IMG/VR virus record: IMGVR_UViG_2757320370_000005
Length of the DNA stretch: 64,000 nucleotides
Reading direction: 5' to 3' (one strand)
Origin: a virus
Taxonomy: Duplodnaviria > Caudoviricetes
Shown here: positions 10,971 to 35,115 of the stretch, piece after piece
Position numbering within the stretch: the first letter of the stretch is position 1
How the letters are laid out: every line of letters starts with the position of its first letter
The notes under the pieces: generated by a model
Databases searched by the model: none
The model's input: only the letters and a program-made list of their open reading frames with translations
Told to the model about the DNA's origin: nothing
Program-made: the position numbers and the translations under genes

Positions 10971-11817
10971 TGCCCTCCACCTCCCTCTGTAATGCACGGT
11001 CCAACACGCTGCCTGTTTTCTTGGATTCTGGAACGGCAACCTGCAGCATGCCTTCCGGATCTACCACTCCATAGTCCACATAACGTTTTTGGTTTAAATA
11101 AGTGGCTGGGTATGGGATAAGCTTTTTATCCGTCTTTAGCAGCTTGCAGGTCTCAGCGAAGTTCTCTGTATTCTTGATGACTAAAGCGGGGTCGAACCCC
11201 TTCTCCTTACACAACTTTTCCCATGATGTCTTTGCCTTCACTGTCGCTATTCTTCTAGGGTAGATTTCATAGAATTTATCAAACAACGCTATGTTTTCTT
11301 TAAAGATTTTCTTTAAAAGATCTTTTTCTTTATATGGGGGAAGTATTGCTCCCCTCCTAGATGGTGTTTGAGGGGAAGTATTGCTCCCCTCAGAGGGGAA
11401 GTGTTGCTCCCCTCCCCCTTCATCATCATGAGGGGAAGTATCGCTCCCCTCATCACTAGTAAACAGGTCGATTTGTTCTTCCATGAGATCACCGCTTTTC
11501 GCTATAGTCCATTCGTCATAATTTTTATTAAAGGAAAGTCGCCGGGCAGTAGTTTTTGTCTCTCGCTTTGTAACAATTAGCACCCGGGACTTTACCAGGT
11601 GGGCGATCTCTTTTCTGACCGTCCTCCCTGATATGCCCGTTGTCTGTTGCAGAAAGGTGATCGAAAATTCATGATCCTTTCGGCTGTATCCGTAGGTGAG
11701 ACGCCATATCTTCAGTACAATTCGTAGTTGCGCGCCATTGAAGGTGTACTGACATATCTCATCTAAAATTTCATTTGCAATAGGCGCAAACCCGTTCTCC
11801 TTTTGGGGCTTTGCCAT
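10903..11817 (-). CDS. Phage replication initiator (lambda O-like N-terminus)
   Basis: ENGFAPIANEIL...LRIVLKIWRLTYG; C-domain FYEIYPR...IPYPATYLNQ; internal iterons. Confidence 0.9.
   Translation of the reverse strand: MAKPQKENGFAPIANEILDEICQYTFNGAQLRIVLKIWRLTYGYSRKDHEFSITFLQQTTGISGRTVRKEIAHLVKSRVLIVTKRETKTTARRLSFNKNYDEWTIAKSGDLMEEQIDLFTSDEGSDTSPHDDEGGGEQHFPSEGSNTSPQTPSRRGAILPPYKEKDLLKKIFKENIALFDKFYEIYPRRIATVKAKTSWEKLCKEKGFDPALVIKNTENFAETCKLLKTDKKLIPYPATYLNQKRYVDYGVVDPEGMLQVAVPESKKTGSVLDRALQREVEGIGSSRRDVTPQVPVGSLPELQD
11335..11451. repeat. Four ~22-bp quasi-palindromic iterons (GAGGGGAAGTATTGCTCCCCTC); probable phage ori
   Basis: Copies at ~11335, 11370, 11393 and 11430 inside the initiator gene, next to an AT-rich tract. 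Confidence 0.85.
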
Positions 11818-13169: not shown

Positions 13170-13987
13170 TAGTACAACGCCAGTTCTTTGTGATGTTTGA
13201 TCCGGGTTATTTTCTTTGTCTGCCTGCAGTAATCGCACTTTTCGCAACGGTTTGGCTCCACCGTCCCGGACTTGACTGCTTTGACCCGCTCAATATGATT
13301 GCCTACGATACGCAAATGTGCAGCGATATCATCGAAGTCAAAATATATGATTTCATGATCTGGCGGGTCCTGCTTGGTCACTACAACCATATGGGGCAGC
13401 AGCCAGTCTTCCTCTTTGCGGCCGGATACCCGGCGCTCCACCTCGGCATACACCGCCATCTGAATGATGTATCCGTAGTGGTCCAGGAAGTTCTCGTAAG
13501 CCTGAGCCTCGCGGTTCCAAAACTTGCCGTCCATCTCTTTCAAAGCCTTCAGATCGGCGAATATCTTGGCCTCTGGCTGGTAACTATCCAGCATGACCTT
13601 CCAAGGGATGCCGAACATTTCCACCGTCATGATGACTTCCTTCTGTCCAGACAATGCCTTCATGACCAGCGGATCGCCTTCCAGCACCTCAATCATTTTG
13701 TTGCAGTGCTGGAAATTGGATTTCAGTTGCCCAGAGGTTGGCCCCCTGCTGCTGTAAAGCTCAGGATTGTCTGCCTTGAATTCAGGCAGAGTACCCTCGT
13801 TCCATGCGTGGACATAGTGGCCTTCCATAAAAGCTGTGATTGAAGGCTGTACATATTCACCGCTGATTTTTGCCATGGCCTGAGCCTCACACCCCCCGTA
13901 GGAGGGCAGGAAGCCCTTGAACTGGCTGACGCTCATATAGTGGCGATTGGCTTCGAGGCTGAAGTAATTTGATTTATTCAGTTCCAT
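13169..13987 (-). CDS. PD-(D/E)XK exonuclease-like protein (DUF3799/RecE-like), RecT partner
   Basis: YMSVSQFK, KVMLD, ADLK, YIIQMAVY. Confidence 0.85.
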   Translation of the reverse strand: MELNKSNYFSLEANRHYMSVSQFKGFLPSYGGCEAQAMAKISGEYVQPSITAFMEGHYVHAWNEGTLPEFKADNPELYSSRGPTSGQLKSNFQHCNKMIEVLEGDPLVMKALSGQKEVIMTVEMFGIPWKVMLDSYQPEAKIFADLKALKEMDGKFWNREAQAYENFLDHYGYIIQMAVYAEVERRVSGRKEEDWLLPHMVVVTKQDPPDHEIIYFDFDDIAAHLRIVGNHIERVKAVKSGTVEPNRCEKCDYCRQTKKITRIKHHKELALY

Positions 13988-14762
13988 CGGCTGCGCCCTC
14001 CCCGACCGCTGTAAACTCCCCGTCGATCACAGTTGATTTAGGATTCAGCGGGCTTTCCTGAGCTGGCTTTTTATCTTTATTGAATTCAAAATCCCCACCG
14101 TCTTCGAAAGCTTGTTTAGCTTCAATGGTGTCGAAGTCCAGTTCAATATTTTTGCAGAGCCGGCGCAAAACTGTTTTCCTGTACATTTCGCTGGTTGTCA
14201 CGACCCAGGCTTTAGAAAACTGCCCCGTATCTTTAGATTTTTTAGAGAAGTTTTCCTTAATACTCTCGATTTCCTTGACGCTCATGGTGTCGTAGTTCAT
14301 TGAGCCATCTTCATACACCACTACGGCAAATGCCCCTAATACCTCGCCATCGTTGAAGGGCAAGGGTTTAAAGTTGATGCTCTGATTGCCGCCCTCAATG
14401 GTTTCTTCAAACTCATCACCTGCCCGCACTACCTTGGCATATATGTCTTTAATTCGTTTTATGCTGTATTTCTTAGCAAGCTTGACCTCGCCCTTATAGT
14501 CCGTCATGAATTCGACTTTGCCGCCATAAATGATTGCGTAGCATTCTTTATTAAAGAAGTCCAAACCGAGGAATGCACCTTTCAGCATGGTCCGTGCAAT
14601 GCTGACCGGATCAGCCTTTTCAATTCCATAAGTGTCTTGCAACACGGTCATGCAGTTTTGCAAGAACCGGGTTTTATTAAAACTGGAAGGCATAGCGTCT
14701 CTTTTAGAATCGATCAGTCTTTCCAGGTTGTTGTGAATCGTCGCTAATTGAGTGTTTGACAT
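13974..14762 (-). CDS. recT: RecT-family single-strand annealing protein
   Basis: GLDFFNKECYAIIY, YKGEVKLA, MYRKTVLRRLCK. Confidence 0.92.
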   Translation of the reverse strand: MSNTQLATIHNNLERLIDSKRDAMPSSFNKTRFLQNCMTVLQDTYGIEKADPVSIARTMLKGAFLGLDFFNKECYAIIYGGKVEFMTDYKGEVKLAKKYSIKRIKDIYAKVVRAGDEFEETIEGGNQSINFKPLPFNDGEVLGAFAVVVYEDGSMNYDTMSVKEIESIKENFSKKSKDTGQFSKAWVVTTSEMYRKTVLRRLCKNIELDFDTIEAKQAFEDGGDFEFNKDKKPAQESPLNPKSTVIDGEFTAVGEGAADGTE

Positions 14763-20769: not shown

Positions 20770-21417
20770 ATGACTGGTTCTGAGGATAGAAAATTATTTT
20801 ATAGTGTAGTGGGAAGAAACATAAAAAAGTACCGTGACATTAGAAATTACAGTCTTCAGATATTGGCTGAAAAAGTTGGAATCACAAAGAAAACTGTTCA
20901 ACGGTATGAAAATGGAGAACATAAATTCGACATGGATAGACTTAAAGATCTTGCAACGGCACTCGATGTTACAGTAAACCAACTAACAGAAGGTGCTTAT
21001 ACATATACAGGAAATGAAATTCAAGACTCTGAATACATAAGCTTGCCTGTGGTAGGAAAGATTTCTTGCGGCAATGGTCAATTAGCATATGAATCCATTG
21101 AAGGATATGAGACAACTCCACGTTCGTGGATCAACGGTGGAGAATATTTCTATCTGAGAGCGAAGGGCGATAGCATGAATGGCGCACGTATTTTTGAAGG
21201 GGATCTGTTGCTGATCCGTAAGCAGGAAGAGGTCGAAGACGGTGAAATTGCGGCTGTACTAATTGATGATGAGGCGGTCTTGAAAAAAGTATACGTGCAG
21301 AATAACACTTTGATTCTGCAATCTACTAATCCTAACTACCCACCAATTATTTTTACGGGTGATAATTCGAACATTCGCATCATCGGAAAACTAAAGAAAG
21401 TTGTTATTAATTTCTGA
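20770..21417 (+). CDS. CI-like repressor (XRE HTH + S24 autopeptidase), SOS-inducible
   Basis: HTH; SCG cleavage-site region; GDSM serine and VLKK lysine. Confidence 0.95.
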   Translation: MTGSEDRKLFYSVVGRNIKKYRDIRNYSLQILAEKVGITKKTVQRYENGEHKFDMDRLKDLATALDVTVNQLTEGAYTYTGNEIQDSEYISLPVVGKISCGNGQLAYESIEGYETTPRSWINGGEYFYLRAKGDSMNGARIFEGDLLLIRKQEEVEDGEIAAVLIDDEAVLKKVYVQNNTLILQSTNPNYPPIIFTGDNSNIRIIGKLKKVVINF

Positions 21418-22479: not shown

Positions 22480-22613
22480 ATGATTATCACCTCAGGTATA
22501 TCTTTCCGCATATTAAAGACAATCATACAAACATTGTAAAAATTCGTAGTAAAATTTTCCTATCTCTGGTAGACTTGCTTTGTAAATTATTATCATTTTT
22601 AGGGGGAAGAAGA

Positions 22614-23219
22614 TTGAAAAAGCCGATTTATAAGAAATGGTGGTTTTGGATTGTATTAATCATTGTTATCGCTGCTATTGGTAATATGGGTGATGACACA
22701 GAATCAACTGCTTCTGTCGAACCAGTTGCAACCAAGCAAGCTCAAGCTGCAATTGCTGAAAAGACCGACGCTCCCACTGCAACTCCAACTGCTGAGGAAC
22801 TAAAGGCAATTGAAGAAGAAACAAAGAAAAAAGCGGAAGCAGATAAAAAGGCTAAGGAAGAAGCAGAAGCTAAAGATAAAGCTGCAGCTGAAGCTAAGGC
22901 AAAAGAGGATAGTGTCCCTAGAGAACATAAATCAGCATTAAAAAAAGCGGAAATGTATGCAGAAGCTATGAATATGTCAAAGACAGGCATTTACGATCAG
23001 TTGACTTCTGAATATGGAGAGAATTTTCCACCAGAAGCCGCTCAATATGCCATCGATAACATTGTATTTGATTGGAAAGAAAATGCATTAAAAAAGGCAC
23101 AATCATATGCAGAAGATATGAGTATGTCAGATTCGGCTGTTTACGATCAATTGATTTCAGAATACGGGGAAAAATTCACTGCGGAAGAAGCGCAATATGC
23201 GATAGATAATTTAGAATAA
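22614..23219 (+). CDS. ltp: Ltp-family surface protein, putative superinfection exclusion
   Basis: N-terminal KKWWFW TM anchor, A/K/E linker, two ALKKAxxY...YDQL.SEYGE.F..E.AQYAIDN repeats; no lipobox Cys seen. Confidence 0.88.
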   Translation: MKKPIYKKWWFWIVLIIVIAAIGNMGDDTESTASVEPVATKQAQAAIAEKTDAPTATPTAEELKAIEEETKKKAEADKKAKEEAEAKDKAAAEAKAKEDSVPREHKSALKKAEMYAEAMNMSKTGIYDQLTSEYGENFPPEAAQYAIDNIVFDWKENALKKAQSYAEDMSMSDSAVYDQLISEYGEKFTAEEAQYAIDNLE

Positions 23220-26020: not shown

Positions 26021-27376
26021 CTAAATGATCCGCGCTGCCTCGGACACAATCCTATTTACATTTGTCTCCTGAGGATAAAATATATACTTCCCTTGATCAA
26101 TCGCGTATGCCTTAGCCTCCCACATAGCCGCGTGAGAGATAAATCTAGTAAGCACGGCGATAACGTCAGCTTGGTCAAGGCTGGCATAAAAGTCAGGGTC
26201 TAGCTTGTCAGCGTTATGGGTGAGTATGCGGCAAGGGTAATCGCCTGAACTCCTCCGCCGGTTACCGCCAATGATGGCTAGAGTCTTGCCTGCCAGCTTG
26301 GAGAGATCATCTACAGTGTCACCTAGCTCAATTGCTTCTCTCAGCTCCGGCGGCTCTCCGGCATCCGCCGGCTTCTCATCTGGCCGGAGTTGTCGCAGCT
26401 CGCCCATCAACTCTCCGATAAAGCTTTTCAATTCCCGGATGCGCCGCTGGTCTTCTTGGCTCCTTGCTTCGGACGGCTGGTTCTGCTGCTCTAACCCCCT
26501 GATCCTCTCATTGGCTGCCCCTAGCTTATCCCGCAACCCGGCTAACTCATGCTTTTGCTTCTCGGACTCTCGCATAAGGGCTGTGGACTGTACGGATTTT
26601 TTTTGAATATCCTCTGTGAGTTGACCGATCCACCGTAGTAAGAAGGCATTATCCCCCTTCTCACGCCGGAACAACTGGCCGATATATTTTGTCCGTTGAT
26701 CCTCCAGTGCTGGAGCGATGGGGAAATACATAATGGCAAAGCGCGTCCGCGCAGCTCCATACATTTTGGCGTAGAGGTCCGGTGTCCACCCCATAGCCCC
26801 AATATATAAGATTTCTTCCTGGATAAAATACACGTTCGCCGCACGCCAAAAGGACGAACGCTCGGCTTCAGTTACAACCTTTGCAGCCACCTCCCGCCGA
26901 GCTTGCTGCTCTGTTTTCCAGCTTGCTGTAAGTCCGATGGCTGCTGCGCCAGTCTCAATTTCAGAACGAAGCAGCTCCCCGACAGCAGCGCGCCAGTCTT
27001 CCAGCGCATACTCCACATAGGCTCCCCAAAAGGCACGCTCCTGGTCCTGATAAATCTCATAGCGGCGCTTATGGCCCTCCTGCATTAACTCCCCTATCTC
27101 TGGATCAATCGCCCCGCCGTAGTCGATGTTAACCTGCAATATATCCTTGCGAGAGTCTTGATCGCGGTAAATAAAACGCTCTGGAGGATACGCCGTGCTG
27201 CATTTAGTGCATTGGATAGGTCTTACTTGGTGGTTAGTATCATCCATTGCATCCTCCAGCTTACGATACAGCATACGCCCGTAATCATGGATCATGACCT
27301 CGGCATAATGGTTGCATTTGGTGCAGCGACCTACTGAGTAGACCTTAACGTGTACAGGTTTGTCCATAAAGTCCAT
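26021..27376 (-). CDS. Zinc-ribbon + coiled-coil + DUF2325-like domain protein
   Basis: CTKC...CTKC; C-terminal LAGKTLAIIGG...ADVIAVLTRFISH. Confidence 0.75.
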   Translation of the reverse strand: MDFMDKPVHVKVYSVGRCTKCNHYAEVMIHDYGRMLYRKLEDAMDDTNHQVRPIQCTKCSTAYPPERFIYRDQDSRKDILQVNIDYGGAIDPEIGELMQEGHKRRYEIYQDQERAFWGAYVEYALEDWRAAVGELLRSEIETGAAAIGLTASWKTEQQARREVAAKVVTEAERSSFWRAANVYFIQEEILYIGAMGWTPDLYAKMYGAARTRFAIMYFPIAPALEDQRTKYIGQLFRREKGDNAFLLRWIGQLTEDIQKKSVQSTALMRESEKQKHELAGLRDKLGAANERIRGLEQQNQPSEARSQEDQRRIRELKSFIGELMGELRQLRPDEKPADAGEPPELREAIELGDTVDDLSKLAGKTLAIIGGNRRRSSGDYPCRILTHNADKLDPDFYASLDQADVIAVLTRFISHAAMWEAKAYAIDQGKYIFYPQETNVNRIVSEAARII

Positions 27377-27379
27377 GAG

Positions 27380-27589
27380 TTACTGATCCTCCTGTTTTTT
27401 GCGTCGTACTACCTCAGACAACTCTAAATCGTATACCTCGCATATTCGGTCCAGCACCTCCAAGGACACATAACCGTCTTTCCACAGCTTTGACGCCGTG
27501 GTTGGGGATATGCCGACCTTTGCTATAAAATCCATCTTTTTAATTGTGCGCTTTACTAGCATTATACGCAGCGGTTCATACGTTATCAT
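27380..27589 (-). CDS. Cro/C1-type HTH regulator (HTH_26-like)
   Basis: ITYEPL...VGISPTTASKL...VSLEVLDRIC. Confidence 0.88.
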   Translation of the reverse strand: MITYEPLRIMLVKRTIKKMDFIAKVGISPTTASKLWKDGYVSLEVLDRICEVYDLELSEVVRRKKQEDQ

Positions 27590-27751: not shown

Positions 27752-28156
27752 ATGAACATCACTCAAATGTACGAAATGGTTAAAGGTATCTACGCTGCAA
27801 ACGAAGACAAGTATGTTGCGATTGGCCTTCGCTTCGAAGACAAGGAACGCGAGATCGGCGAGGTTTGCGAGTACAGCAAACACAATGCCGACCGCGACGA
27901 TGAGCGTGATTTTCCTGAGTTCGGCTCCGAGGATTACGAGGACATGTTCGAACTGGACGGCACATCCGCGTGGGACATGAGCGTTGACTCCACGTACCGG
28001 ATCGAGCGGTGGCAAGACCCCGAAAAGGATTGCTCATTACATTTCGAGCCTCTCTACTGTTACGTAATCGCTGGCAACACCACTCGCACCCATTCAGACG
28101 CCGACCCAGGCGAGGTTGTAATCAAGGATGCTATTGTTATTGCACAAATCTTCTAA
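27752..28156 (+). CDS. Small highly acidic protein; anti-defence candidate
   Basis: About a quarter D/E; GGAGG RBS; strong promoter. Confidence 0.8.
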   Translation: MNITQMYEMVKGIYAANEDKYVAIGLRFEDKEREIGEVCEYSKHNADRDDERDFPEFGSEDYEDMFELDGTSAWDMSVDSTYRIERWQDPEKDCSLHFEPLYCYVIAGNTTRTHSDADPGEVVIKDAIVIAQIF

Positions 28157-28233
28157 TCGACAAGGGCCGCTACAGCCCCTCTATATACACGCCGCAGACA
28201 CACTAAGGTGTCGGGTATGAAGGAGAACTACTC

Positions 28234-29061
28234 ATGACAACTGAAACAATTATTCGAGTACCATTAGGATATAGCGCAAACGACTTGGCCATCGATCATC
28301 CTTGCGGAACAGAAATTCCATCTAATGGAGTTTCTGGACTGCAAAGCAAACCAGCAACTGTAGACGGAATTGATGGCCGTGATATGAGCGTTGTGACTAT
28401 AAGTGGCGTTTTGGTGTATTACGCCGAAATGTCAGGATACTCAAGGAATCACGGTTTAAGCACCATATATTACGGGTGCAGACCAAGTCAGCCATACATC
28501 GAATTGGATAGTTTTCACAATTCAAATAACTCAAGATATACATTCTTTGTTCCGGATAGTTTTCGAGTCGAAAGCCTAAGAGTTGTTCAAGATGATTATA
28601 GTAGGAGCAAAATCGCTAAAAATTTAATACTTTACCCTAAAAGAGTTGAGGGGTTGAGGGATTTTTTTAAACAAGGTAGTAATTATCCAACTATTGACAA
28701 GTACAATGCAATGTTGAGCTTGTATAAGGAGGCAGGTTTAACACAACATCACTCTTATCGGGTGATGTTAGAGGGTAGAAACGAATTAATCGATAAATAT
28801 GTTTATGGTCACGGTTTCTGCGTGACTGTCGGATATACTAAATGGCACCATATTGTTCAGCCGGACGGATCTGTCCTCTATGGTAAGGACGAGTTTCACA
28901 GGGAAACAGATAAAAAAATATCTGCTTCAGTAAAGGATTTTCACGAGATGATCTTAAAAGAGTCTTCCTATCCTTCGAGTTCTAGCGCTGAGTCAGAGCG
29001 CGGGCGTAGTCTCAAGCGAATACAGTATTTAATTGAGACGTATGCTTCAGACAGATTTTAG
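28234..29061 (+). CDS. Hypothetical protein (275 aa)
   Basis: AAGGAG RBS; no recognisable motif. Confidence 0.75.
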   Translation: MTTETIIRVPLGYSANDLAIDHPCGTEIPSNGVSGLQSKPATVDGIDGRDMSVVTISGVLVYYAEMSGYSRNHGLSTIYYGCRPSQPYIELDSFHNSNNSRYTFFVPDSFRVESLRVVQDDYSRSKIAKNLILYPKRVEGLRDFFKQGSNYPTIDKYNAMLSLYKEAGLTQHHSYRVMLEGRNELIDKYVYGHGFCVTVGYTKWHHIVQPDGSVLYGKDEFHRETDKKISASVKDFHEMILKESSYPSSSSAESERGRSLKRIQYLIETYASDRF

Positions 29062-29064
29062 GCA

Positions 29065-29180
29065 ATAAAAAGCCCACCGCCAGCATAATGCTAAGCGGTG
29101 GGCTTTGGTGTGTGTATCTGTTGCAATCCACACTCCTGCAAGAGGAGCGAATGCGCGTCCAGTGCTTCCGATCCGCGCAA
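29065..29180 (-). ncRNA. Small RNA with a solitary type I-C CRISPR-repeat-like unit (candidate Racr/crRNA-like RNA)
   Basis: Own promoter, 5' hairpin, repeat-like 32-mer, 13-nt linker and intrinsic terminator (29068-29106). Confidence 0.75.
29120..29151 (-). CRISPR. Solitary repeat unit TTCGCTCCTCTTGCAGGAGTGTGGATTGCAAC (not an array)
   Basis: 32 nt; 7-bp stem and 5-nt loop ending at nt 21, then an 11-nt TGGATTGCAAC tail; matches the recalled I-C pattern GTCGC...GCGTGGATTGAAAY. Confidence 0.8.
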
Positions 29181-29184
29181 GACC

Positions 29185-29213
29185 ATACTATCATCTTTGG
29201 GATGATATGTAAA
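29185..29213 (-). promoter_or_regulatory. SigA promoter of the sRNA with an operator-like palindrome in the spacer
   Basis: TTTACA-17-TAGTAT with extended TG; TATCATC-N5-GATGATA at 29189-29207. Confidence 0.75.
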
Positions 29214-29321
29214 TAAAAAGGATCATTCGCAATTAATTAAGATTGACGGTTCTTTTTATACCCAGGACTTACCTATCACACGTCACCACTCAAAAGATTA
29301 TAATTATTGAGAGGTGAAATT

Positions 29322-30185
29322 ATGTTTATATCCCCTATGCTGCTGCAAACGGCCCCCAGGCCATTTAGTCACAGTGATTATATATATGAGCCCAAGGTTG
29401 ATGGCCACCGACTAATCTATTCCCAACAATCCGGCGGAGTCCGACTCTATACCCGCCACAATAACGAGTGCACCCTGCAGTACCCGGAACTGCAGCTTCC
29501 CTTTGCCGACGACATTATCCTGGACGGCGAAGTCGCCTGTGTCGACCCGTCCACCGGTGTATCAGATTTTGAATCTGTAATGAGCCGGTTCCAGACGCGC
29601 CGGGATGATAAGATTCAGCAGCTCACAGCCTCCTTGCCAGCCTATTACGCCATATTTGATATCTTGATGTATAAAGGCCAGGACATGCGCGGGTTGCCAC
29701 TCCTGCGCCGCAAGGAGATCCTAGCAGGCTTGTCGCTGCCATCCAGTAGTTTTGGAGTGGTGCCGCACGTGGACGGCGCTGGGGAGGCGCTATTTAAACA
29801 AATCGAGGATCGTGGAATGGAGGGTGTTGTCGGCAAACGTAAGAACAGCATTTATGAAACTGGCCGCCGCTCCGTTGCCTGGCAGAAGGTAATCAACTGG
29901 ACCTATGCTGATGTGTTTATCACAGGCTATCGTAAGCAGGAATTTGGATGGTTGGCTGCTGTACCATCCGGTACGTCCGGCAGGCTTCGCCCTGCTGGGA
30001 TCATTGAGTTTGGAGCTTCACCACACCATAAGAAGGCATTTCACGGTGTGGTCCAGCAGCTTGTGAAAGGCGAGGATAAGGAGTTTGTGCACCTGGAGCC
30101 CAGGCTGCGGGCAAAGGTGCGAATGAGGAACTGGACCAAATCCGGCATGCTGCGGAGCCCAGTGTTTACGGAGTTTATCATATAA
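29322..30185 (+). CDS. ATP-dependent DNA ligase (LigD-like ligase core)
   Basis: EPKVDG adenylation motif, ILDGEV, FDIL, EGVVGKR. Confidence 0.92.
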   Translation: MFISPMLLQTAPRPFSHSDYIYEPKVDGHRLIYSQQSGGVRLYTRHNNECTLQYPELQLPFADDIILDGEVACVDPSTGVSDFESVMSRFQTRRDDKIQQLTASLPAYYAIFDILMYKGQDMRGLPLLRRKEILAGLSLPSSSFGVVPHVDGAGEALFKQIEDRGMEGVVGKRKNSIYETGRRSVAWQKVINWTYADVFITGYRKQEFGWLAAVPSGTSGRLRPAGIIEFGASPHHKKAFHGVVQQLVKGEDKEFVHLEPRLRAKVRMRNWTKSGMLRSPVFTEFII

Positions 30186-30188
30186 TCA

Positions 30189-30228
30189 AAAAAAGCCCCG
30201 CCGACCCATTTAAGGTTGACGGGGCTTA
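30189..30228. terminator. Bidirectional terminator
   Basis: AAGCCCCG...CGGGGCTT with flanking A/T tracts. Confidence 0.7.
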
Positions 30229-30265
30229 TTCGTTGAGGATCGACACATATGTTCTCCGTACATCA

Positions 30266-30703
30266 TCAATCACTTGTATCACCTGATAATTTCCGCACAA
30301 GTATTCCGAATTCTTTGCTCTTATTATAATCAAACCCAGCCAATTCTACAGCTTCGCTCCAGGATATTCCGAGTTTGTAGATAGTAGTTACGTGAGGTGA
30401 TAACTCTGCCTTTTTATACTCGGTCGTTGTTAGCAATTTCCCGGCAGATAAGAAGTGTTTACGCAGGGCATTTGCGATTTGATCGATGTCCATTTCTCTC
30501 CCGTTAGGCCGTCTATACTCAACGCCCGCCGCGAGACATGCTGCTTGAAATGAATGGTATCTTTTTAAAATGGTCATGTATGATGGTTTAAGTTTACTCT
30601 CTTTGTACTGTTCAACAGAAAGTGAGCCATCATACATTTCGGACGCTGCAAGCAATGCTTCAGAAATATTCCCATCTGTATACTCCCTTCCTTTCTTCTT
30701 CAT
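30266..30703 (-). CDS. Protein of two HNH-associated repeats only
   Basis: YTDGNISEAL...PSYMTILKRYHSFQAACLAAGV plus a second copy. Confidence 0.75.
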   Translation of the reverse strand: MKKKGREYTDGNISEALLAASEMYDGSLSVEQYKESKLKPSYMTILKRYHSFQAACLAAGVEYRRPNGREMDIDQIANALRKHFLSAGKLLTTTEYKKAELSPHVTTIYKLGISWSEAVELAGFDYNKSKEFGILVRKLSGDTSD

Positions 30704-30711
30704 TTCCTTTC

Positions 30712-31035
30712 CTATTTTCGGGGGTTAGGAATAAATTTCACCTTTGCTATATTACAAGCATTCTCAAATGTGCCGAATCTCGAAACAATCGCATAACTAG
30801 TTGGTTTTGATTTCGACATATTGTATATAGCCTGATTTACAAAGCCATTTTCCAATTCTACTTTTCTCAGTTGTTCATAGATTTGCTCATTTGAATAAAC
30901 TTGATTCGGACTTTTTGCTAAGTCAGCGATCACCATCGCTTTCTGCAGACTTCCGTAACGTAATATCGATTCTTCATATACCGTTTTTAACAATGAGATA
31001 AAATCCTGTTCGCTCATTTCCCGTATATTGCTCAT
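30712..31035 (-). CDS. Protein with one HNH-associated repeat
   Basis: YSNEQIYEQL...PTSYAIVSRFGTFENACNIAKV. Confidence 0.7.
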   Translation of the reverse strand: MSNIREMSEQDFISLLKTVYEESILRYGSLQKAMVIADLAKSPNQVYSNEQIYEQLRKVELENGFVNQAIYNMSKSKPTSYAIVSRFGTFENACNIAKVKFIPNPRK

Positions 31036-31250
31036 AATTCAAATTTAAACTCCCATTTTTTCACGTTTTTCTCAATTTCAATTGGAATCATGAACATTGT
31101 AATCCCCCCGTTCGGGAACCAATCTATTAGGTCACTTTGGCATCCTTTATCTTGCCGGATGTCCTCTAAGGTGTATGGATTCATCTTGATTTTTGTCGGC
31201 TTCTCTTCCGCCGCCGCAATCTCCGATTTCAAGTCTGCTCCTAATCTCAT
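31032..31250 (-). CDS. Hypothetical protein
   Basis: GGAGG RBS. Confidence 0.6.
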   Translation of the reverse strand: MRLGADLKSEIAAAEEKPTKIKMNPYTLEDIRQDKGCQSDLIDWFPNGGITMFMIPIEIEKNVKKWEFKFEL

Positions 31251-31263
31251 ATCCGTCCTCCAG

Positions 31264-31482
31264 TTATTTTATGTATGCTCTAAATTCAAACCGTTCCCGT
31301 ACAAAATGGGGACCGGCTATCTTGATGGAGTCTGGAGTATATCCCTCCACGATCCCTCCGTCATCCATCAGGTGACCTTCAGGGTCTGGTTCTTCCCGGT
31401 ACCATACCGACACCTTAGATTGAGTCAGGGCTGCCATCAGGAAGTCTGTATCACTCTCTAGGACTTTGTATGTAGTGCTCAT
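31264..31482 (-). CDS. Hypothetical protein
   Basis: ATGA overlap with the RES gene. Confidence 0.65.
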   Translation of the reverse strand: MSTTYKVLESDTDFLMAALTQSKVSVWYREEPDPEGHLMDDGGIVEGYTPDSIKIAGPHFVRERFEFRAYIK

Positions 31483-32222
31483 CTGTTTTTCATTCCAATA
31501 GATCGACCTTTTTTTTGATCTTCAAGGCGATGTATTGATTTATCAAGCTTATAGTTGAGCAAGTCCCCATTAAAAATAACGATATTAAACTGATTCGAAT
31601 TTTTTGAACAGGTATACTTTACCCCATCTAATTTCATATAATCACGTATGTATTGAGCGATAGCTTGAGTCGGCATATATTCAACCAAAGATCGTTCTGA
31701 AGAAACGGGCCTTGAAAAGTTCAAATCAATTATTTTTCTAAAGCTATTAATTTTTGCGTCCTCATTTTCCCCATGAACTAAGTTCAATAACTTAAGCATT
31801 CTTTTTGGTCTGCACTCAACTATTGTAACTGGAGCAAAAATGGAAGCGTTCAGTTCCAAAAGAGCTGTAGAAATTGAATCTGCCGCATAAAGAAAAGAGA
31901 CCCCTTTTGGATTTAACCTCCCTACTCCAGCCTTTCTATGAGGTGGCGCCTTAACCTCTGCTAGCTTCCTAAAAAGCCTTCCTTTTCTACCTCTATAAAA
32001 AATTTCATCAGGATAAATCTTCTCGACCCCAATACTTCTTATAAAATTAAAGATGTTCTCTTGAGAGTTAATCTCCAACTTATTAGTCAGTTTAAACCCA
32101 TCCGCAAATTTGTCATACTCATCTTGTGCATATTTGTTATTGGAAATGAGAATTGATGCCCCTAAAGATTCTTCGCCAATTTGACCTCCATACTGCTTAC
32201 CCTTATAAAGAATCATACTCAT
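31479..32222 (-). CDS. RES-domain protein (putative NAD+-consuming toxin/defence effector)
   Basis: FYRGR, APP...GRLNPKGVSFLY.A...ALLE, YMPTQAIAQYI...DGVKY; AT-rich. Confidence 0.85.
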   Translation of the reverse strand: MSMILYKGKQYGGQIGEESLGASILISNNKYAQDEYDKFADGFKLTNKLEINSQENIFNFIRSIGVEKIYPDEIFYRGRKGRLFRKLAEVKAPPHRKAGVGRLNPKGVSFLYAADSISTALLELNASIFAPVTIVECRPKRMLKLLNLVHGENEDAKINSFRKIIDLNFSRPVSSERSLVEYMPTQAIAQYIRDYMKLDGVKYTCSKNSNQFNIVIFNGDLLNYKLDKSIHRLEDQKKGRSIGMKNR

Positions 32223-32506: not shown

Positions 32507-33046
32507 TTGAAAAAAGCAATCATAGGGCTAGTCGCTGGCATGCTGATCGGATCAGCGGGAATGGCAGCAGCTGCGACAACTCAAACCGTCCAGGCTGTAT
32601 TCGCTAAATTCACACTTTCTGTGGATGGCCAGAAGCAAACGCTGAAGAATGACCCGCTTGTCTATAGAGGCACGACATACTTGCCAGTCCGTGAGGTGGC
32701 CGAAATGACCGGCTACGGACTGGAGTATGACAACACGAAAAAATCCATTGATTTGAAGACGAAAGGAGATGAAGTTTCTGTGGGAATTACTGACGAAATC
32801 AATTTAAATGAATTTATTTCAACCAAGGTTTTGGTGGCAGACTATGATGTAGACGTTTCGGCTGAATCCGGAAAAATTAGAGATGTGACTTACAAAAAAA
32901 ATGACAACATCATTGTTTACTCGATGCCAGGCACTTTAGTAGATGGTATTTATAACAGTGTTGATGGATTGCATAAAGCTGCGGTTAAAGATGGGGCAAT
33001 ATACCTGTCGAAAGAAGCAGTATCTTTTTTGGGTATATCTATTTAA
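32507..33046 (+). CDS. Exported protein with copper-amine-oxidase N-terminal-like (stalk) domain
   Basis: Signal peptide; PLVYRGTTYLPVREVAEMTGYGLEYD. Confidence 0.8.
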   Translation: MKKAIIGLVAGMLIGSAGMAAAATTQTVQAVFAKFTLSVDGQKQTLKNDPLVYRGTTYLPVREVAEMTGYGLEYDNTKKSIDLKTKGDEVSVGITDEINLNEFISTKVLVADYDVDVSAESGKIRDVTYKKNDNIIVYSMPGTLVDGIYNSVDGLHKAAVKDGAIYLSKEAVSFLGISI

Positions 33047-35115
33047 TAATTACCGCCTCCACGGCTCATCACGAATAATTGGCTGACTACAGTCGCAACC
33101 ACACGCCCGAGATTATTGGGCGTTATTTTTATGGAGTGATACATTCCCCGATTTACCTTGCCACTATCATCCTTACTCAAATATGGAATGATATCAATGT
33201 CCTCAGCACTTGTTCCGGTAAATGGGACGACATTCCCATCCACTTCAATCGTTAGAGCCGTGGGCGTAGGGCCCGCATAAATACCATACTCTATCCCATG
33301 CGTATGAGCAGGGATTTGGTGTGTGTGTTCCATGTTGTGGCTGTGCTCCATATTGTGCGTGTGTTCCATATTGTGGGTATGGTCCATGTCGTGTGTGTGC
33401 TCCATATTGTGGGTATGGTCCATATCATGAGTATGATCCATATCGTGTACGTGGTCTGGTAAATCTATTAGATGATCATGCATAGCAGGGGAATGAGTAT
33501 GGCCTGGATGCGATACATAGGTTACGTATCCTCCTCCAGTTATTAATAACTGAGTTCCGTTTGCAACCCCGTGGTTATGACCACCATCATACGTCGATGG
33601 GTCTGGTGCAAAACCAGGTGCCAGTTTATACGCACCAGTTCTTGTGTTGATTACCCCCCCGCCATCTGCCGTTGTATCTCTCGTACTCGGTCCCGCTGTG
33701 TCCCGCGTACTTGGTCCTGCTGTATCACGCGTACTCGGTCCCGCTGTCTGCCTGCTACTTGGGCCAGCTGTATCCCTTGTGCTCGGGCCTGCTGTCTCCC
33801 TGCTGCTGGGTCCGCTGGTGTTTTTTGAACTGGAACCTGAAGTCGCTGCTGGCGCCGACTCTATAGCCTTGCTATAAGCCCTGAACGCCTCCGCCTGAAA
33901 CGATAGCATGACCTTATTAATCCGAGCCGTCTCCTCGGGTACATAGAATTTGAGTATGGCCGGATGCGTGGGGTCAGCATTATCCGCGAAGTCCCGAGTA
34001 TCCAGATTGGTTGCCCCCTGTGCGTATGAATCATTGATATGCTGCCGGTTCTGCAAATCGGCTATGCTACCCGCGATGTCCTCCGTCCGGTTGGCAATCT
34101 CCAGCTGTGCGTCTCCCGGCGAACCTATCATATCGCCCTTGCCTTTGTTGACCACCCGCGCGATAAAGTCCTCACCCATTTCGTCGTCTCTCACACGGAT
34201 TCGAGCGCCCGTCTTGAACTTATATATCTGCTGGCCCGTCAGACGGTGGATTTCAGAGGCTCCGACGCTATAGGAGACTCGTGGCACCTTTAGCTCGCTA
34301 TATAGTGTCTGGCAACGCGCCAGCAATGTATCTGCATGCTCAAAGCGGCGGTCAACAAAGATGGATGACAGGATACCGTACTGAGCTTGTGCTGCTGCAT
34401 CCTCGATGTACGGAAGTCCGCCGTTGATGTCCGCGAATGTGAGTTGGTTGACGCCTTCCCCGAAGCCGAGCCCATATAACCGGGTGCAGAGGTTTGTCGG
34501 GTCTACTACCTTCTCGATCTCGGTCATGTTGACACCGTACCGGATGTAGGCGGTCACCTCTTCATCTGGCGGCACAAGGTTCAGCGTCCACGGATAGGAT
34601 GTTGTGTCCCAGGTCCATTGATAATCAGCGTCGAACGGCTTCGGCACCGAGAACAGCGCCCCCAGTAGCGTATCGTTCTCCCAATTGTATTCAAACTGCC
34701 GCCCGAAGCCGACCGTTCCCAGCTCCCAGCGCGGAACAACCTGTTTGGATAGGATATATTGCAGCACCTGGGCGGTGTATACTCCCAGATTGCCGACCGT
34801 ATGCGACTGAAACAGAACGTCATTCAGCAGCGTGGCAAGTACGTGCTCGCATTCGTATTTGATGATAGGGCCGCTCTGATTCCGGTTCGTGGTGTTAGGT
34901 ACAATGCGGAATAGTTCTATCCGTTCATACCCGTCATACAACTCCACAAAGTAAAACTCCCTACACTCGGCATTCTTTGGATCATTGCCCGGGAGGCTGA
35001 AGGATGCCGTCCACAGCGAATTGAGCGGCATGCTGTATTCGATATTATAAGCATTCTCCAGCAGCGCTACGCGCCGCATTTGAGCATCATATATTGTGAT
35101 TGGTGGTTTAGCCAT
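33043..35115 (-). CDS. Minor tail / tail spike protein (Tal-like) with repeat-rich C-terminus
   Basis: TRLYGLGFGEG; GPSTRDTA and HTHDMD/HTHNME repeats. Confidence 0.85.
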   Translation of the reverse strand: MAKPPITIYDAQMRRVALLENAYNIEYSMPLNSLWTASFSLPGNDPKNAECREFYFVELYDGYERIELFRIVPNTTNRNQSGPIIKYECEHVLATLLNDVLFQSHTVGNLGVYTAQVLQYILSKQVVPRWELGTVGFGRQFEYNWENDTLLGALFSVPKPFDADYQWTWDTTSYPWTLNLVPPDEEVTAYIRYGVNMTEIEKVVDPTNLCTRLYGLGFGEGVNQLTFADINGGLPYIEDAAAQAQYGILSSIFVDRRFEHADTLLARCQTLYSELKVPRVSYSVGASEIHRLTGQQIYKFKTGARIRVRDDEMGEDFIARVVNKGKGDMIGSPGDAQLEIANRTEDIAGSIADLQNRQHINDSYAQGATNLDTRDFADNADPTHPAILKFYVPEETARINKVMLSFQAEAFRAYSKAIESAPAATSGSSSKNTSGPSSRETAGPSTRDTAGPSSRQTAGPSTRDTAGPSTRDTAGPSTRDTTADGGGVINTRTGAYKLAPGFAPDPSTYDGGHNHGVANGTQLLITGGGYVTYVSHPGHTHSPAMHDHLIDLPDHVHDMDHTHDMDHTHNMEHTHDMDHTHNMEHTHNMEHSHNMEHTHQIPAHTHGIEYGIYAGPTPTALTIEVDGNVVPFTGTSAEDIDIIPYLSKDDSGKVNRGMYHSIKITPNNLGRVVATVVSQLFVMSRGGGNY
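33318..33455 (-). repeat. 18-bp tandem repeats encoding H-x-H-x-M-x units
   Basis: HDMDHTHDMDHTHNMEHTH...; about 7-8 units. Confidence 0.9.
33675..33830 (-). repeat. 24-bp tandem repeats encoding GPS(S/T)R(D/E/Q)TA
   Basis: About 6 units with synonymous divergence. Confidence 0.9.

Follow-up and report, generated by a model that had tools for sequence, protein, structure and literature searches.

RNA anti-CRISPRs (Racrs) are encoded by solitary repeat units (Camara-Wilpert et al. 2023, PMC10651486), among them RacrIC1 from a Bifidobacterium prophage. Cracrs are crRNA-like RNAs of viruses that mimic the regulators CreR or CreA and repress the promoters of cas or creT genes (Liu et al., bioRxiv 10.1101/2024.10.29.618823); the same preprint reports two-spacer Cracr arrays of type I-C and contends that a decoy alone is ineffective where a system is armed with CreR. 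The stretch of DNA analyzed here (the window) comprises 64,000 nucleotides of a Paenibacillus genome, recorded in IMG/VR as virus IMGVR_UViG_2757320370_000005 (Duplodnaviria; Caudoviricetes), and contains a locus that had been predicted to encode a small RNA built around a solitary type I-C CRISPR repeat, a candidate Racr that would either sequester Cas proteins or guide Cascade as a regulator. These two options correspond to the two published classes, Racr and Cracr. The best explanation of the locus, to which we assign a probability of about 0.45 from sequence comparisons, is that it is a small RNA gene of a mobile element, derived from a type I-C repeat, which would act as an RNA anti-CRISPR against the common type I-C systems of Paenibacillus and perhaps also silence a cas promoter.

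Like a Racr, the window unit is a mimic of a single type I-C repeat in a prophage-type element, with a promoter of its own (predicted here) and among accessory genes, and both the sequence and the hairpin of its repeat are similar to those of repeats in the host lineage. It differs from Racrs in that its repeat has only 84% identity to the closest real repeat, against 94-100% for the listed solitary repeats that were inspected; in that it stands alone, with a leader hairpin and with a terminator 13 nt past the repeat, whereas the Racr lies behind an acr gene and is co-transcribed with it; and in that its host has no cas genes. Like CracrVA1, it joins a repeat-like segment, a short spacer-like segment and a rho-independent terminator on a mobile element, and its closest family member, in the related island L084, is a two-unit array that copies the guides of two type I-C CreR-like RNAs of Paenibacillus, in agreement with the two-spacer type I-C arrays of the preprint. 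Unlike for a Cracr, no defining PAM-proximal match of at least 9 nt was found for the window guide in the sequences searched, and the form with a single repeat plus a terminator is described in the preprint for type V-A, whereas the window unit is of type I-C. With host CreR (bioRxiv 10.1101/2023.03.10.532045), as seen in 15 CreR-like units of Paenibacillus type I-C loci, it has in common a single repeat, a handle whose last bases are often changed, a short guide and a terminator; unlike host CreR, it is located outside any cas locus, its hairpin is of full length and no promoter target was found for it.

The architecture described for the RNA gene (promoter-like site, hairpin, repeat, linker and terminator) is confirmed on the minus strand at 29213-29065, with every predicted part present (Table 1), in a 260-bp gap between two plus-strand genes, a 275-aa ORF and an ATP-dependent DNA ligase. 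The predicted RNA is approximately 112-116 nt long, with a minimum free energy (MFE) of -51.3 kcal/mol (z = -5.1 for the whole transcript compared to shuffled sequences), and its transcription would start near 29178. In a consensus scan, the promoter-like site has 9 of 12 matches plus the TG, and the 33 nt from its predicted end to the repeat fall within the distance of at most 250 bp upstream that is used to recognize Racr promoters. The leader hairpin is present in both the MFE and the centroid folds. Folded alone, the 32-mer forms, as the original prediction had it and as the host repeat does, a 7-bp stem (nt 3-9 with nt 15-21) with a 5-nt loop and an 11-nt tail. The terminator has an interrupted stem of 17 bp and a U-tract that is strong on the minus strand only, and is shared back-to-back with the convergent 275-aa gene. 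Counted against the anti-CRISPR reading are the promoter-like site, which taken alone is at chance level (2 such sites in the scan versus 2.3 expected from shuffles) but is conserved in L084; the single-stranded stretch before the terminator, which is only 13 nt long; and a competing fold of the full-length RNA, in which GUGUG of the repeat can pair with CACAC of the linker, so that the repeat hairpin is less stable than the MFE structure by 0.6 kcal/mol; its pairs have probabilities of 0.28-0.48. Small ORFs that overlap the RNA, such as the one at 29012-29194 on the minus strand, were rejected as genes: they have no ribosome-binding site, translation would begin ahead of the predicted transcription start, and the reading frame crosses the terminator. 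A search of positions 28000-30500 against Rfam produced nothing meaningful, every match being far below the gathering score.

Table 1. Coordinates of the RNA gene, its surroundings and the arrays of the host genome (window positions, except for the last row).
Feature	Position	Strand	Details
Promoter-like site	29185-29213	-	-35 TTTACA 29213-29208; 17-nt spacer; TG 29193-29192; -10 TAGTAT 29190-29185
5' leader hairpin, 28 nt	29152-29179	-	UGCGCGGAUCGGAAGCACUGGACGCGCA
Solitary type I-C CRISPR repeat, 32 nt	29120-29151	-	TTCGCTCCTCTTGCAGGAGTGTGGATTGCAAC
Repeat stem	29149-29143 paired with 29137-29131	-	
11-nt handle	29130-29120	-	UGGAUUGCAAC; C at repeat position 29 versus A in arrays
13-nt linker / pseudo-spacer	29107-29119	-	AGAUACACACACC = AGATACACACACC, between handle and terminator
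Intrinsic terminator	29065-29106	-	AAAGCCCACCGC...GCGGUGGGCUUU plus U-tract; long GC-rich hairpin, then TTTTTATT
275-aa gene	28234-29061	+	convergent with the RNA gene; no Pfam or PHROG family
ATP-dependent DNA ligase	29322-30185	+	Pfam and PHROG matches
HTH protein	27380-27589	-	Pfam
DUF2325 protein	26021-27376	-	Pfam; with HTH, a two-gene cassette at 26021-27589
Phage early genes	1-21.4 kb		left of the locus; methyltransferases, DnaB-like helicase, replication initiator with iterons, exonuclease, RecT, ParB-like protein, LexA/CI-like repressor
Mixed accessory island	between early and late genes		Ltp-type lipoprotein, YolD, UmuD-like fragment, HNH-repeat proteins, HTH + DUF2325, 275-aa gene, ligase, RES toxin
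Phage late genes	36-63.5 kb		right of the locus; endolysin, tail, head, large terminase, serine integrase
Own-genome type I-C arrays	C1:145254-158854 and 6544037-6544921		3.3 Mb and 3.1 Mb distant from the unit, beyond the window

The assignment of the 32-mer to type I-C was borne out by alignment to 121 distinct type I-C array repeats (1001 copies) from the window's own genome and 20 congeners. The nearest array repeat, GTCGCTCCTCGTGCAGGAGCGTGGATTGAAAT of G064, has 5 mismatches (27 of 32 positions identical, approximately 84%), and the nearest repeat in the arrays of the own genome has 6 (26 of 32). The next-best of the approximately 128,000 32-mers in the window is at a distance of 11, which is also the closest that 20,000 shuffles of the 32-mer come; a distance of 5 against a background of 11 excludes chance. 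The stem is the same as that of the G064 repeat, and compared to the own arrays its C9-G15 pair is replaced by a compensated U9-A15 pair. Departures from near-invariant array bases are located at position 1 (T) and position 29 (C), with further departures at loop position 11 and at stem-closing position 20, where G-C becomes G-U as it also does in some arrays. The 32-mer is unique in the window; as predicted, there is no second repeat, degenerate ones included, nor a cas gene, and thus no mini-array of at least two repeats and a spacer within the window. One hairpin within the promoter is shaped like a repeat, but a manual count gives only 12 identities out of 32. Among 60 relatives and phage records there is no DNA match to the unit, and no viral contig contains a 17-mer of it. 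GTDB representatives contain 33 matches to the 17-mer, 31 of them chance-like; a Fuerstiella site has 26 of 32 identities at borderline significance. A genuine array was found in a Mediterranea sp. MAG (L022, CAMACX010000006.1), with repeats that end in GTGGATTGCAAC; the GCAAC handle therefore exists in natural I-C-like arrays outside Paenibacillus.

The RNA gene lies in the mixed island between the early and late genes of the phage. No att-like direct repeats mark prophage ends in the window; as the borders are not fixed, "prophage-associated accessory island" is the safe wording. An Ltp-type surface lipoprotein with two Ltp repeats (22575-23219, plus strand) is encoded near the CI/LexA-like repressor (20770-21417); Ltp lipoproteins are a family of prophage superinfection-exclusion proteins. 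A RES-domain toxin (31479-32222, minus strand) and the small ORFs upstream of it (31032-31482, minus strand) may form a RES-Xre toxin-antitoxin pair. Four copies of the 20-nt iteron GGGGAAGTATTGCTCCCCTC at 11337-11451, within the replication-initiator gene, are a probable phage origin of replication. Tandem repeats of 18 nt and 24 nt (33314-33457 and 33673-33816) occur in a 690-aa tail endopeptidase-like gene (33043-35115), which is downstream of the endolysin and looks out of place.

The host genome of the window is complete in one contig of 8.54 Mb, of which the window is positions 3,458,854-3,522,853. It contains six type I-C arrays with approximately 70 repeats of the form GTCGCTCCCCGTGCGGGAGCGTGGATTGAAAC/T. 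Models of Cas5d, Csd1/Cas8c, Csd2/Cas7 and Cas1 find nothing in this genome, and tblastn with Cas3, Cas5, Cas8c, Cas7, Cas4 and Cas1 of two congeners gives no match; the search works, as the same Cas5d model detects its target in 42 of 115 congeners. Genes that flank the type I-C operons of congeners have matches with 64-88% identity beside the own arrays, and the ORFs around and between these arrays encode IS110, Fic, a group II intron and resistance-type genes but no cas genes. With cas genes absent and the operon-flanking genes syntenic, the arrays are orphans left after loss of the cas operon, apparently by deletion. In the array region of the own genome (140-170 kb), neither a CreR-like unit nor a target is left. 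One spacer (C1:149717-149752) is a perfect 36-nt match with a TTC PAM to positions 7601055-7601090 of the same genome (L083:10056-10091), in the portal gene of a second prophage that has terminase, portal, protease and capsid genes. Such a spacer would be autoimmune in the presence of active Cas proteins, and it is likely the reason for, or a consequence of, the loss of cas. A spacer of the orphan array at 6.54 Mb matches 26 of 33 nt at window positions 14473-14505 (minus strand), in the RecT-like gene (13974-14762), where the flank is TTCA and the TTC PAM is one base out of register; this match suggests that the lineage was once immune to a relative of this phage region. The part of the original prediction in which the host's Cas5c processes the RNA does not hold: this complete genome has the arrays without cas5c or any other type I-C cas gene, so the RNA is without a partner in the present lysogen and could act only in other hosts or in the past. 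Racrs are expected where the host encodes the matching cas subtype, and its absence from the own genome counts against the anti-CRISPR reading. What stands of the candidate Racr is a homolog of a solitary type I-C repeat with its own promoter and terminator in an accessory island; what does not is a host with matching cas genes.

Conservation, which had been proposed as a check across related prophages, was found in related mobile-element islands. Nine homologous units were identified: one in the window, two in L084, one each in L085, L087, L082 and L069, and two in G024 (Paenibacillus campinasensis). Each has a promoter-like site, a linker of 13-25 nt, and then a terminator or the next repeat; in L069, a spacer-length stretch of 37 nt follows the repeat. 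Over eight units the hairpin is 96.3% paired, with compensatory double changes in four of seven pairs (matched by none of 500 shuffles), in loci that are all related islands and hence not independent. The handle is canonical in one of the nine units and mutated in the other eight, at positions that are 93-100% conserved in arrays; three of the nine have the same A29C change, yet C29 occurs in none of the 121 distinct array repeats (1001 in total). This pattern lends indirect support to the predicted idea that an altered handle may make the RNA non-targeting. A cassette of HTH and DUF2325 genes, which in Paenibacillus mobile elements is more widespread than the 275-aa gene, serves as a marker of the same island: in L084, L085 and L087, as in the window, the solitary-repeat unit is on the same strand as the cassette, 0.9-1.8 kb upstream. 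L084 has about eight island genes in common with the window. The -35 element, the TG-containing end of the spacer and the 5' leader are conserved between the two, the leader being approximately 90% identical, and despite this near-identical promoter and leader the L084 repeat differs from that of the window, the repeat having been swapped. The L084 units form a two-unit array (L084:1361-1448, plus strand, on a Logan contig of SRR3944646) in which the second unit follows 22 nt further on. In L085, TTTACG-17-TATTAT with TG is located just before the unit. The G024 unit, GTCGCACTCCTTGTGAGTGTGGATTGAAAT, is identical to the active type I-C repeat of G024 itself except for two substitutions and a 2-nt deletion in the tail. 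The L082 unit, at the edge of its contig, reads ...GGGGTGTGGATTGCAAT; after a further 19 nt there is a terminator with homology to that of the window. The L069 unit (IMGVR_UViG_3300031867_000107) is a perfect copy of the G064 repeat, adjoins a tyrosine integrase, and is already listed as a type I-C solitary repeat by SRUFinder in the Racr paper (PMC10651486). The possibility that the units are copied leader-repeat junctions was rejected, the sequence 5' of the solitary repeats being unlike the leader ends of Paenibacillus type I-C arrays (...aaaatcgct). A second, more degenerate solitary repeat of G024 (L068:328-358, minus strand) is located 2 kb away from the first, and the two units bracket three cargo genes. 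Beside the promoter side of the solitary repeat, L068:2435-3541 (plus strand; the same as G024:C74) encodes a 368-aa protein that matches the Pfam family Cas_VVA1548 (putative CRISPR-associated) with 27.2 bits, the cut-off being 25.

The 275-aa gene convergent with the RNA gene belongs to a very rare family. Among 1.84 billion cluster representatives of approximately 15 billion predicted proteins, three members were found with E < 1e-10, each a singleton cluster, plus one weak match (E 1e-4); the members are encoded in the window, in G024 and in L082, a Logan contig of 2.5 kb. They have diverged to 31-44% protein identity, and in all three cases a type I-C solitary repeat is located just downstream on the opposite strand. 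The window protein has no Pfam or PHROG family and no match in a sequence search of the PDB; a word-index search finds only the protein itself, and viral contigs contain no relatives of it. Its AlphaFold model has a middling pLDDT of 69.6, for which Foldseek finds nothing at E <= 0.001 and the best VIA-align Z is 5.4, to helical segments; leads in the Atlas score at most 0.84. A family of three in which each member is convergent with a type I-C solitary repeat, at least two of them sharing its terminator, raises the question of whether this protein is a dedicated partner of the RNA, perhaps a new type I-C anti-CRISPR or a protein that binds or processes the repeat hairpin in place of Cas5c; we consider this distinctly unlikely. 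If the protein did bind or process the hairpin, the RNA would work without Cas5c of the host, even where cas genes are absent, and the HTH-DUF2325 cassette would mark an anti-CRISPR island of Paenibacillus with exchangeable cargo.

Regulatory RNAs of similar build are encoded by the type I-C loci of congeners. In 15 such loci (L047, L049-L051, L058, L059, L064-L066, L088, L094, L096, L097, L099, L106), a single degenerate, shortened repeat, a guide of approximately 17 nt and a terminator are located next to cas3. For all 15 units, the 11 nt that directly follow the handle have a second copy, with one or two mismatches and preceded by a TTC PAM, at a distance of 50-170 nt in the adjacent cas promoter region of the same locus, and pairing extends to 14-17 nt; position 6 is mismatched in each of the 15 guide-target pairs. 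Position 6 is left unpaired by the Cascade-type guides of type I crRNAs. The target in L059 is 17-45 nt upstream of the cas3 start codon. These units are CreR-like autoregulators of the type in bioRxiv 10.1101/2023.03.10.532045. In the L084 array, the guide of unit 1 has 16 nt identical to the CreR-like guide of G064 (14 of 14 positions), and the guide of unit 2 agrees with that of G027/G123 at 12 of 14 positions and matches all 11 of 11 nt that follow the TTC PAM of the G123 promoter target, which precedes the cas3 start codon by 17-45 nt; thus, L084 is likely a type I-C Cracr array that copies the CreR-like guides of two Paenibacillus species.

The window guide, AGATACACACACC, has no TTC-flanked target and no matching CreR guide in 46 type I-C loci, and shares no run of at least 9 PAM-proximal nt with a CreR or CreA guide or promoter target, which is how a Cracr is recognized. 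This result is counted against the anti-CRISPR reading, as is the lack, at the start of the window guide, of the -10-like motif (TATAA or TTGTG) with which the guides of the host CreR-like units begin. Against its own genome, the window guide is at chance level (4 sites of TTC plus 8 nt, 4 expected), and its matches in 400 genomes of the family and in JGI metagenomes are chance or coding sequence. Among the other units compared, guide scores are at background (7 of 14 for the window, 7-10 of 14 for the rest), and the G024 guide matches the G024 genome at control level, with one unconvincing 2-mismatch site in the cas locus. A pattern of handle plus guide gave seven matches in another genus of the family, all of them one conserved coding sequence with no hairpin, and eight metagenome matches with no repeat features; both sets were rejected. 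The 37-nt stretch of L069 (L069:1942-1978, minus strand) matches the type I-C locus of G121 (L051:7112, plus strand) at 14 of its first 15 nt, with the mismatch at position 6 and with ATT rather than TTC as the flank.

If the RNA is an anti-CRISPR, the following mechanism may be proposed. In a host proficient in type I-C, Cas5c would bind the repeat hairpin and cut after nt 21 of the repeat to leave the 11-nt handle, the 13-nt guide-like stretch and the terminator hairpin, a product with the same build as the CreR-like regulators encoded beside cas3 in Paenibacillus type I-C loci. Loaded into Cas5c/Cas7 complexes, it would compete with immune crRNAs, and by partial pairing the complex may also be steered onto a cas promoter to shut down the operon in the manner of a Cracr, which is the version toward which we lean since CreR-like units appear nearly universal in these loci and the preprint makes a case against plain decoys. 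Because CreR guides vary by species, the right target may exist only in conspecific strains that retain the operon. The sequence comparisons show the homology of the repeat, a conserved architecture of the gene, covariation in the hairpin, the host CreR-like units with their targets and the mimicry of CreR by the closest homolog; transcription, processing by Cas5c, loading into Cas complexes and any target of the window guide are parts that we infer.

The anti-CRISPR reading derives from a lineage of units shaped like the regulatory crRNA-like RNAs of hosts, at least one member of which copies such regulators. A pure decoy, or Racr, which would only mimic the repeat, be bound and cut by Cas5c and tie up Cas5c and Cas7 in non-functional complexes, with a linker that has no target and with C29 blocking Cas8c or the completion of Cascade, is somewhat unlikely. 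The full-length, array-like hairpin, compared to the shortened repeats of the host CreR-like units, argues for it, as do the failure to find a target for the linker, the recurrence of handle changes in eight of nine units, the published rule by which a solitary repeat that lacks a 9-nt match is classed as a likely Racr, and the example of RacrIC1, which shows that type I-C decoys work (PMC10651486). However, CreR-like autoregulators are common in the type I-C loci of Paenibacillus, and according to the Cracr preprint (bioRxiv 10.1101/2024.10.29.618823) such autoregulators make simple sequestration self-defeating; the closest homolog, in L084, is a guide mimic; and as guides differ between species, a target missing among species representatives is weak evidence for a decoy.

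The main null hypothesis is that the unit, once active against type I-C or recombined from an array, is now a decaying remnant without function in a genome without cas genes. The failure to find the unit in 60 relatives, phage records and viral contigs is consistent with decay, as is the absence of cas itself; so are the four departures from the family consensus and a linker shorter than those of L085, L087 and L082. This explanation is nevertheless improbable: the hairpin has remained intact, one of its pairs being compensatory, L084 has much the same promoter and leader (approximately 90% conserved), the strong terminator has been kept, the module persists beside a gene family that has diverged at the protein level, and the sharing of C29 by three units is unlike random decay. 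Roles in conflict between elements have been proposed for solitary repeats and mini-arrays of mobile elements (PMC11656645), and the unit could be such a mini-array or guide, or one that controls a host or phage gene, its flanking sequence directing borrowed Cas proteins of the host against a competitor or a non-cas promoter. The match of the L069 stretch to the G121 locus over 15 PAM-proximal nt, apart from position 6 and the ATT flank, fits this idea, but in the window the free stretch is just 13 nt long and a second repeat is absent, and the seed matches of the guide across the genome are at chance; we regard this role as highly improbable. We retain, tentatively, the reading as an RNA anti-CRISPR that may also silence a cas promoter.

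RNAs of this kind have been described before, in work on Racrs (2023) and on Cracrs (2024-26); what is new is this lineage with its island marker, its strict association with a protein family that is very rare, a handle change that recurs, and the host without cas genes that has a self-targeting spacer. That host, with orphan arrays, a perfect self-targeting spacer and no cas operon, is a clean example of how the conflict may end. If the RNA is active, a lineage of spore-forming Firmicutes joins the bearers of RNA anti-CRISPRs. The related islands constitute a natural series in which one promoter and leader is combined with swapped repeats and guides and with recurrent handle mutations; from it one could learn which positions in the repeat and the handle determine whether the outcome in type I-C, a subtype that is used for genome editing, is a productive Cascade, a decoy complex or promoter silencing. 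The type I-C loci of Paenibacillus appear almost always to carry single-repeat CreR-like autoregulators, and this apparent near-universality, together with an element that copies two of them, supports the idea that phages must silence these systems and not merely titrate them.
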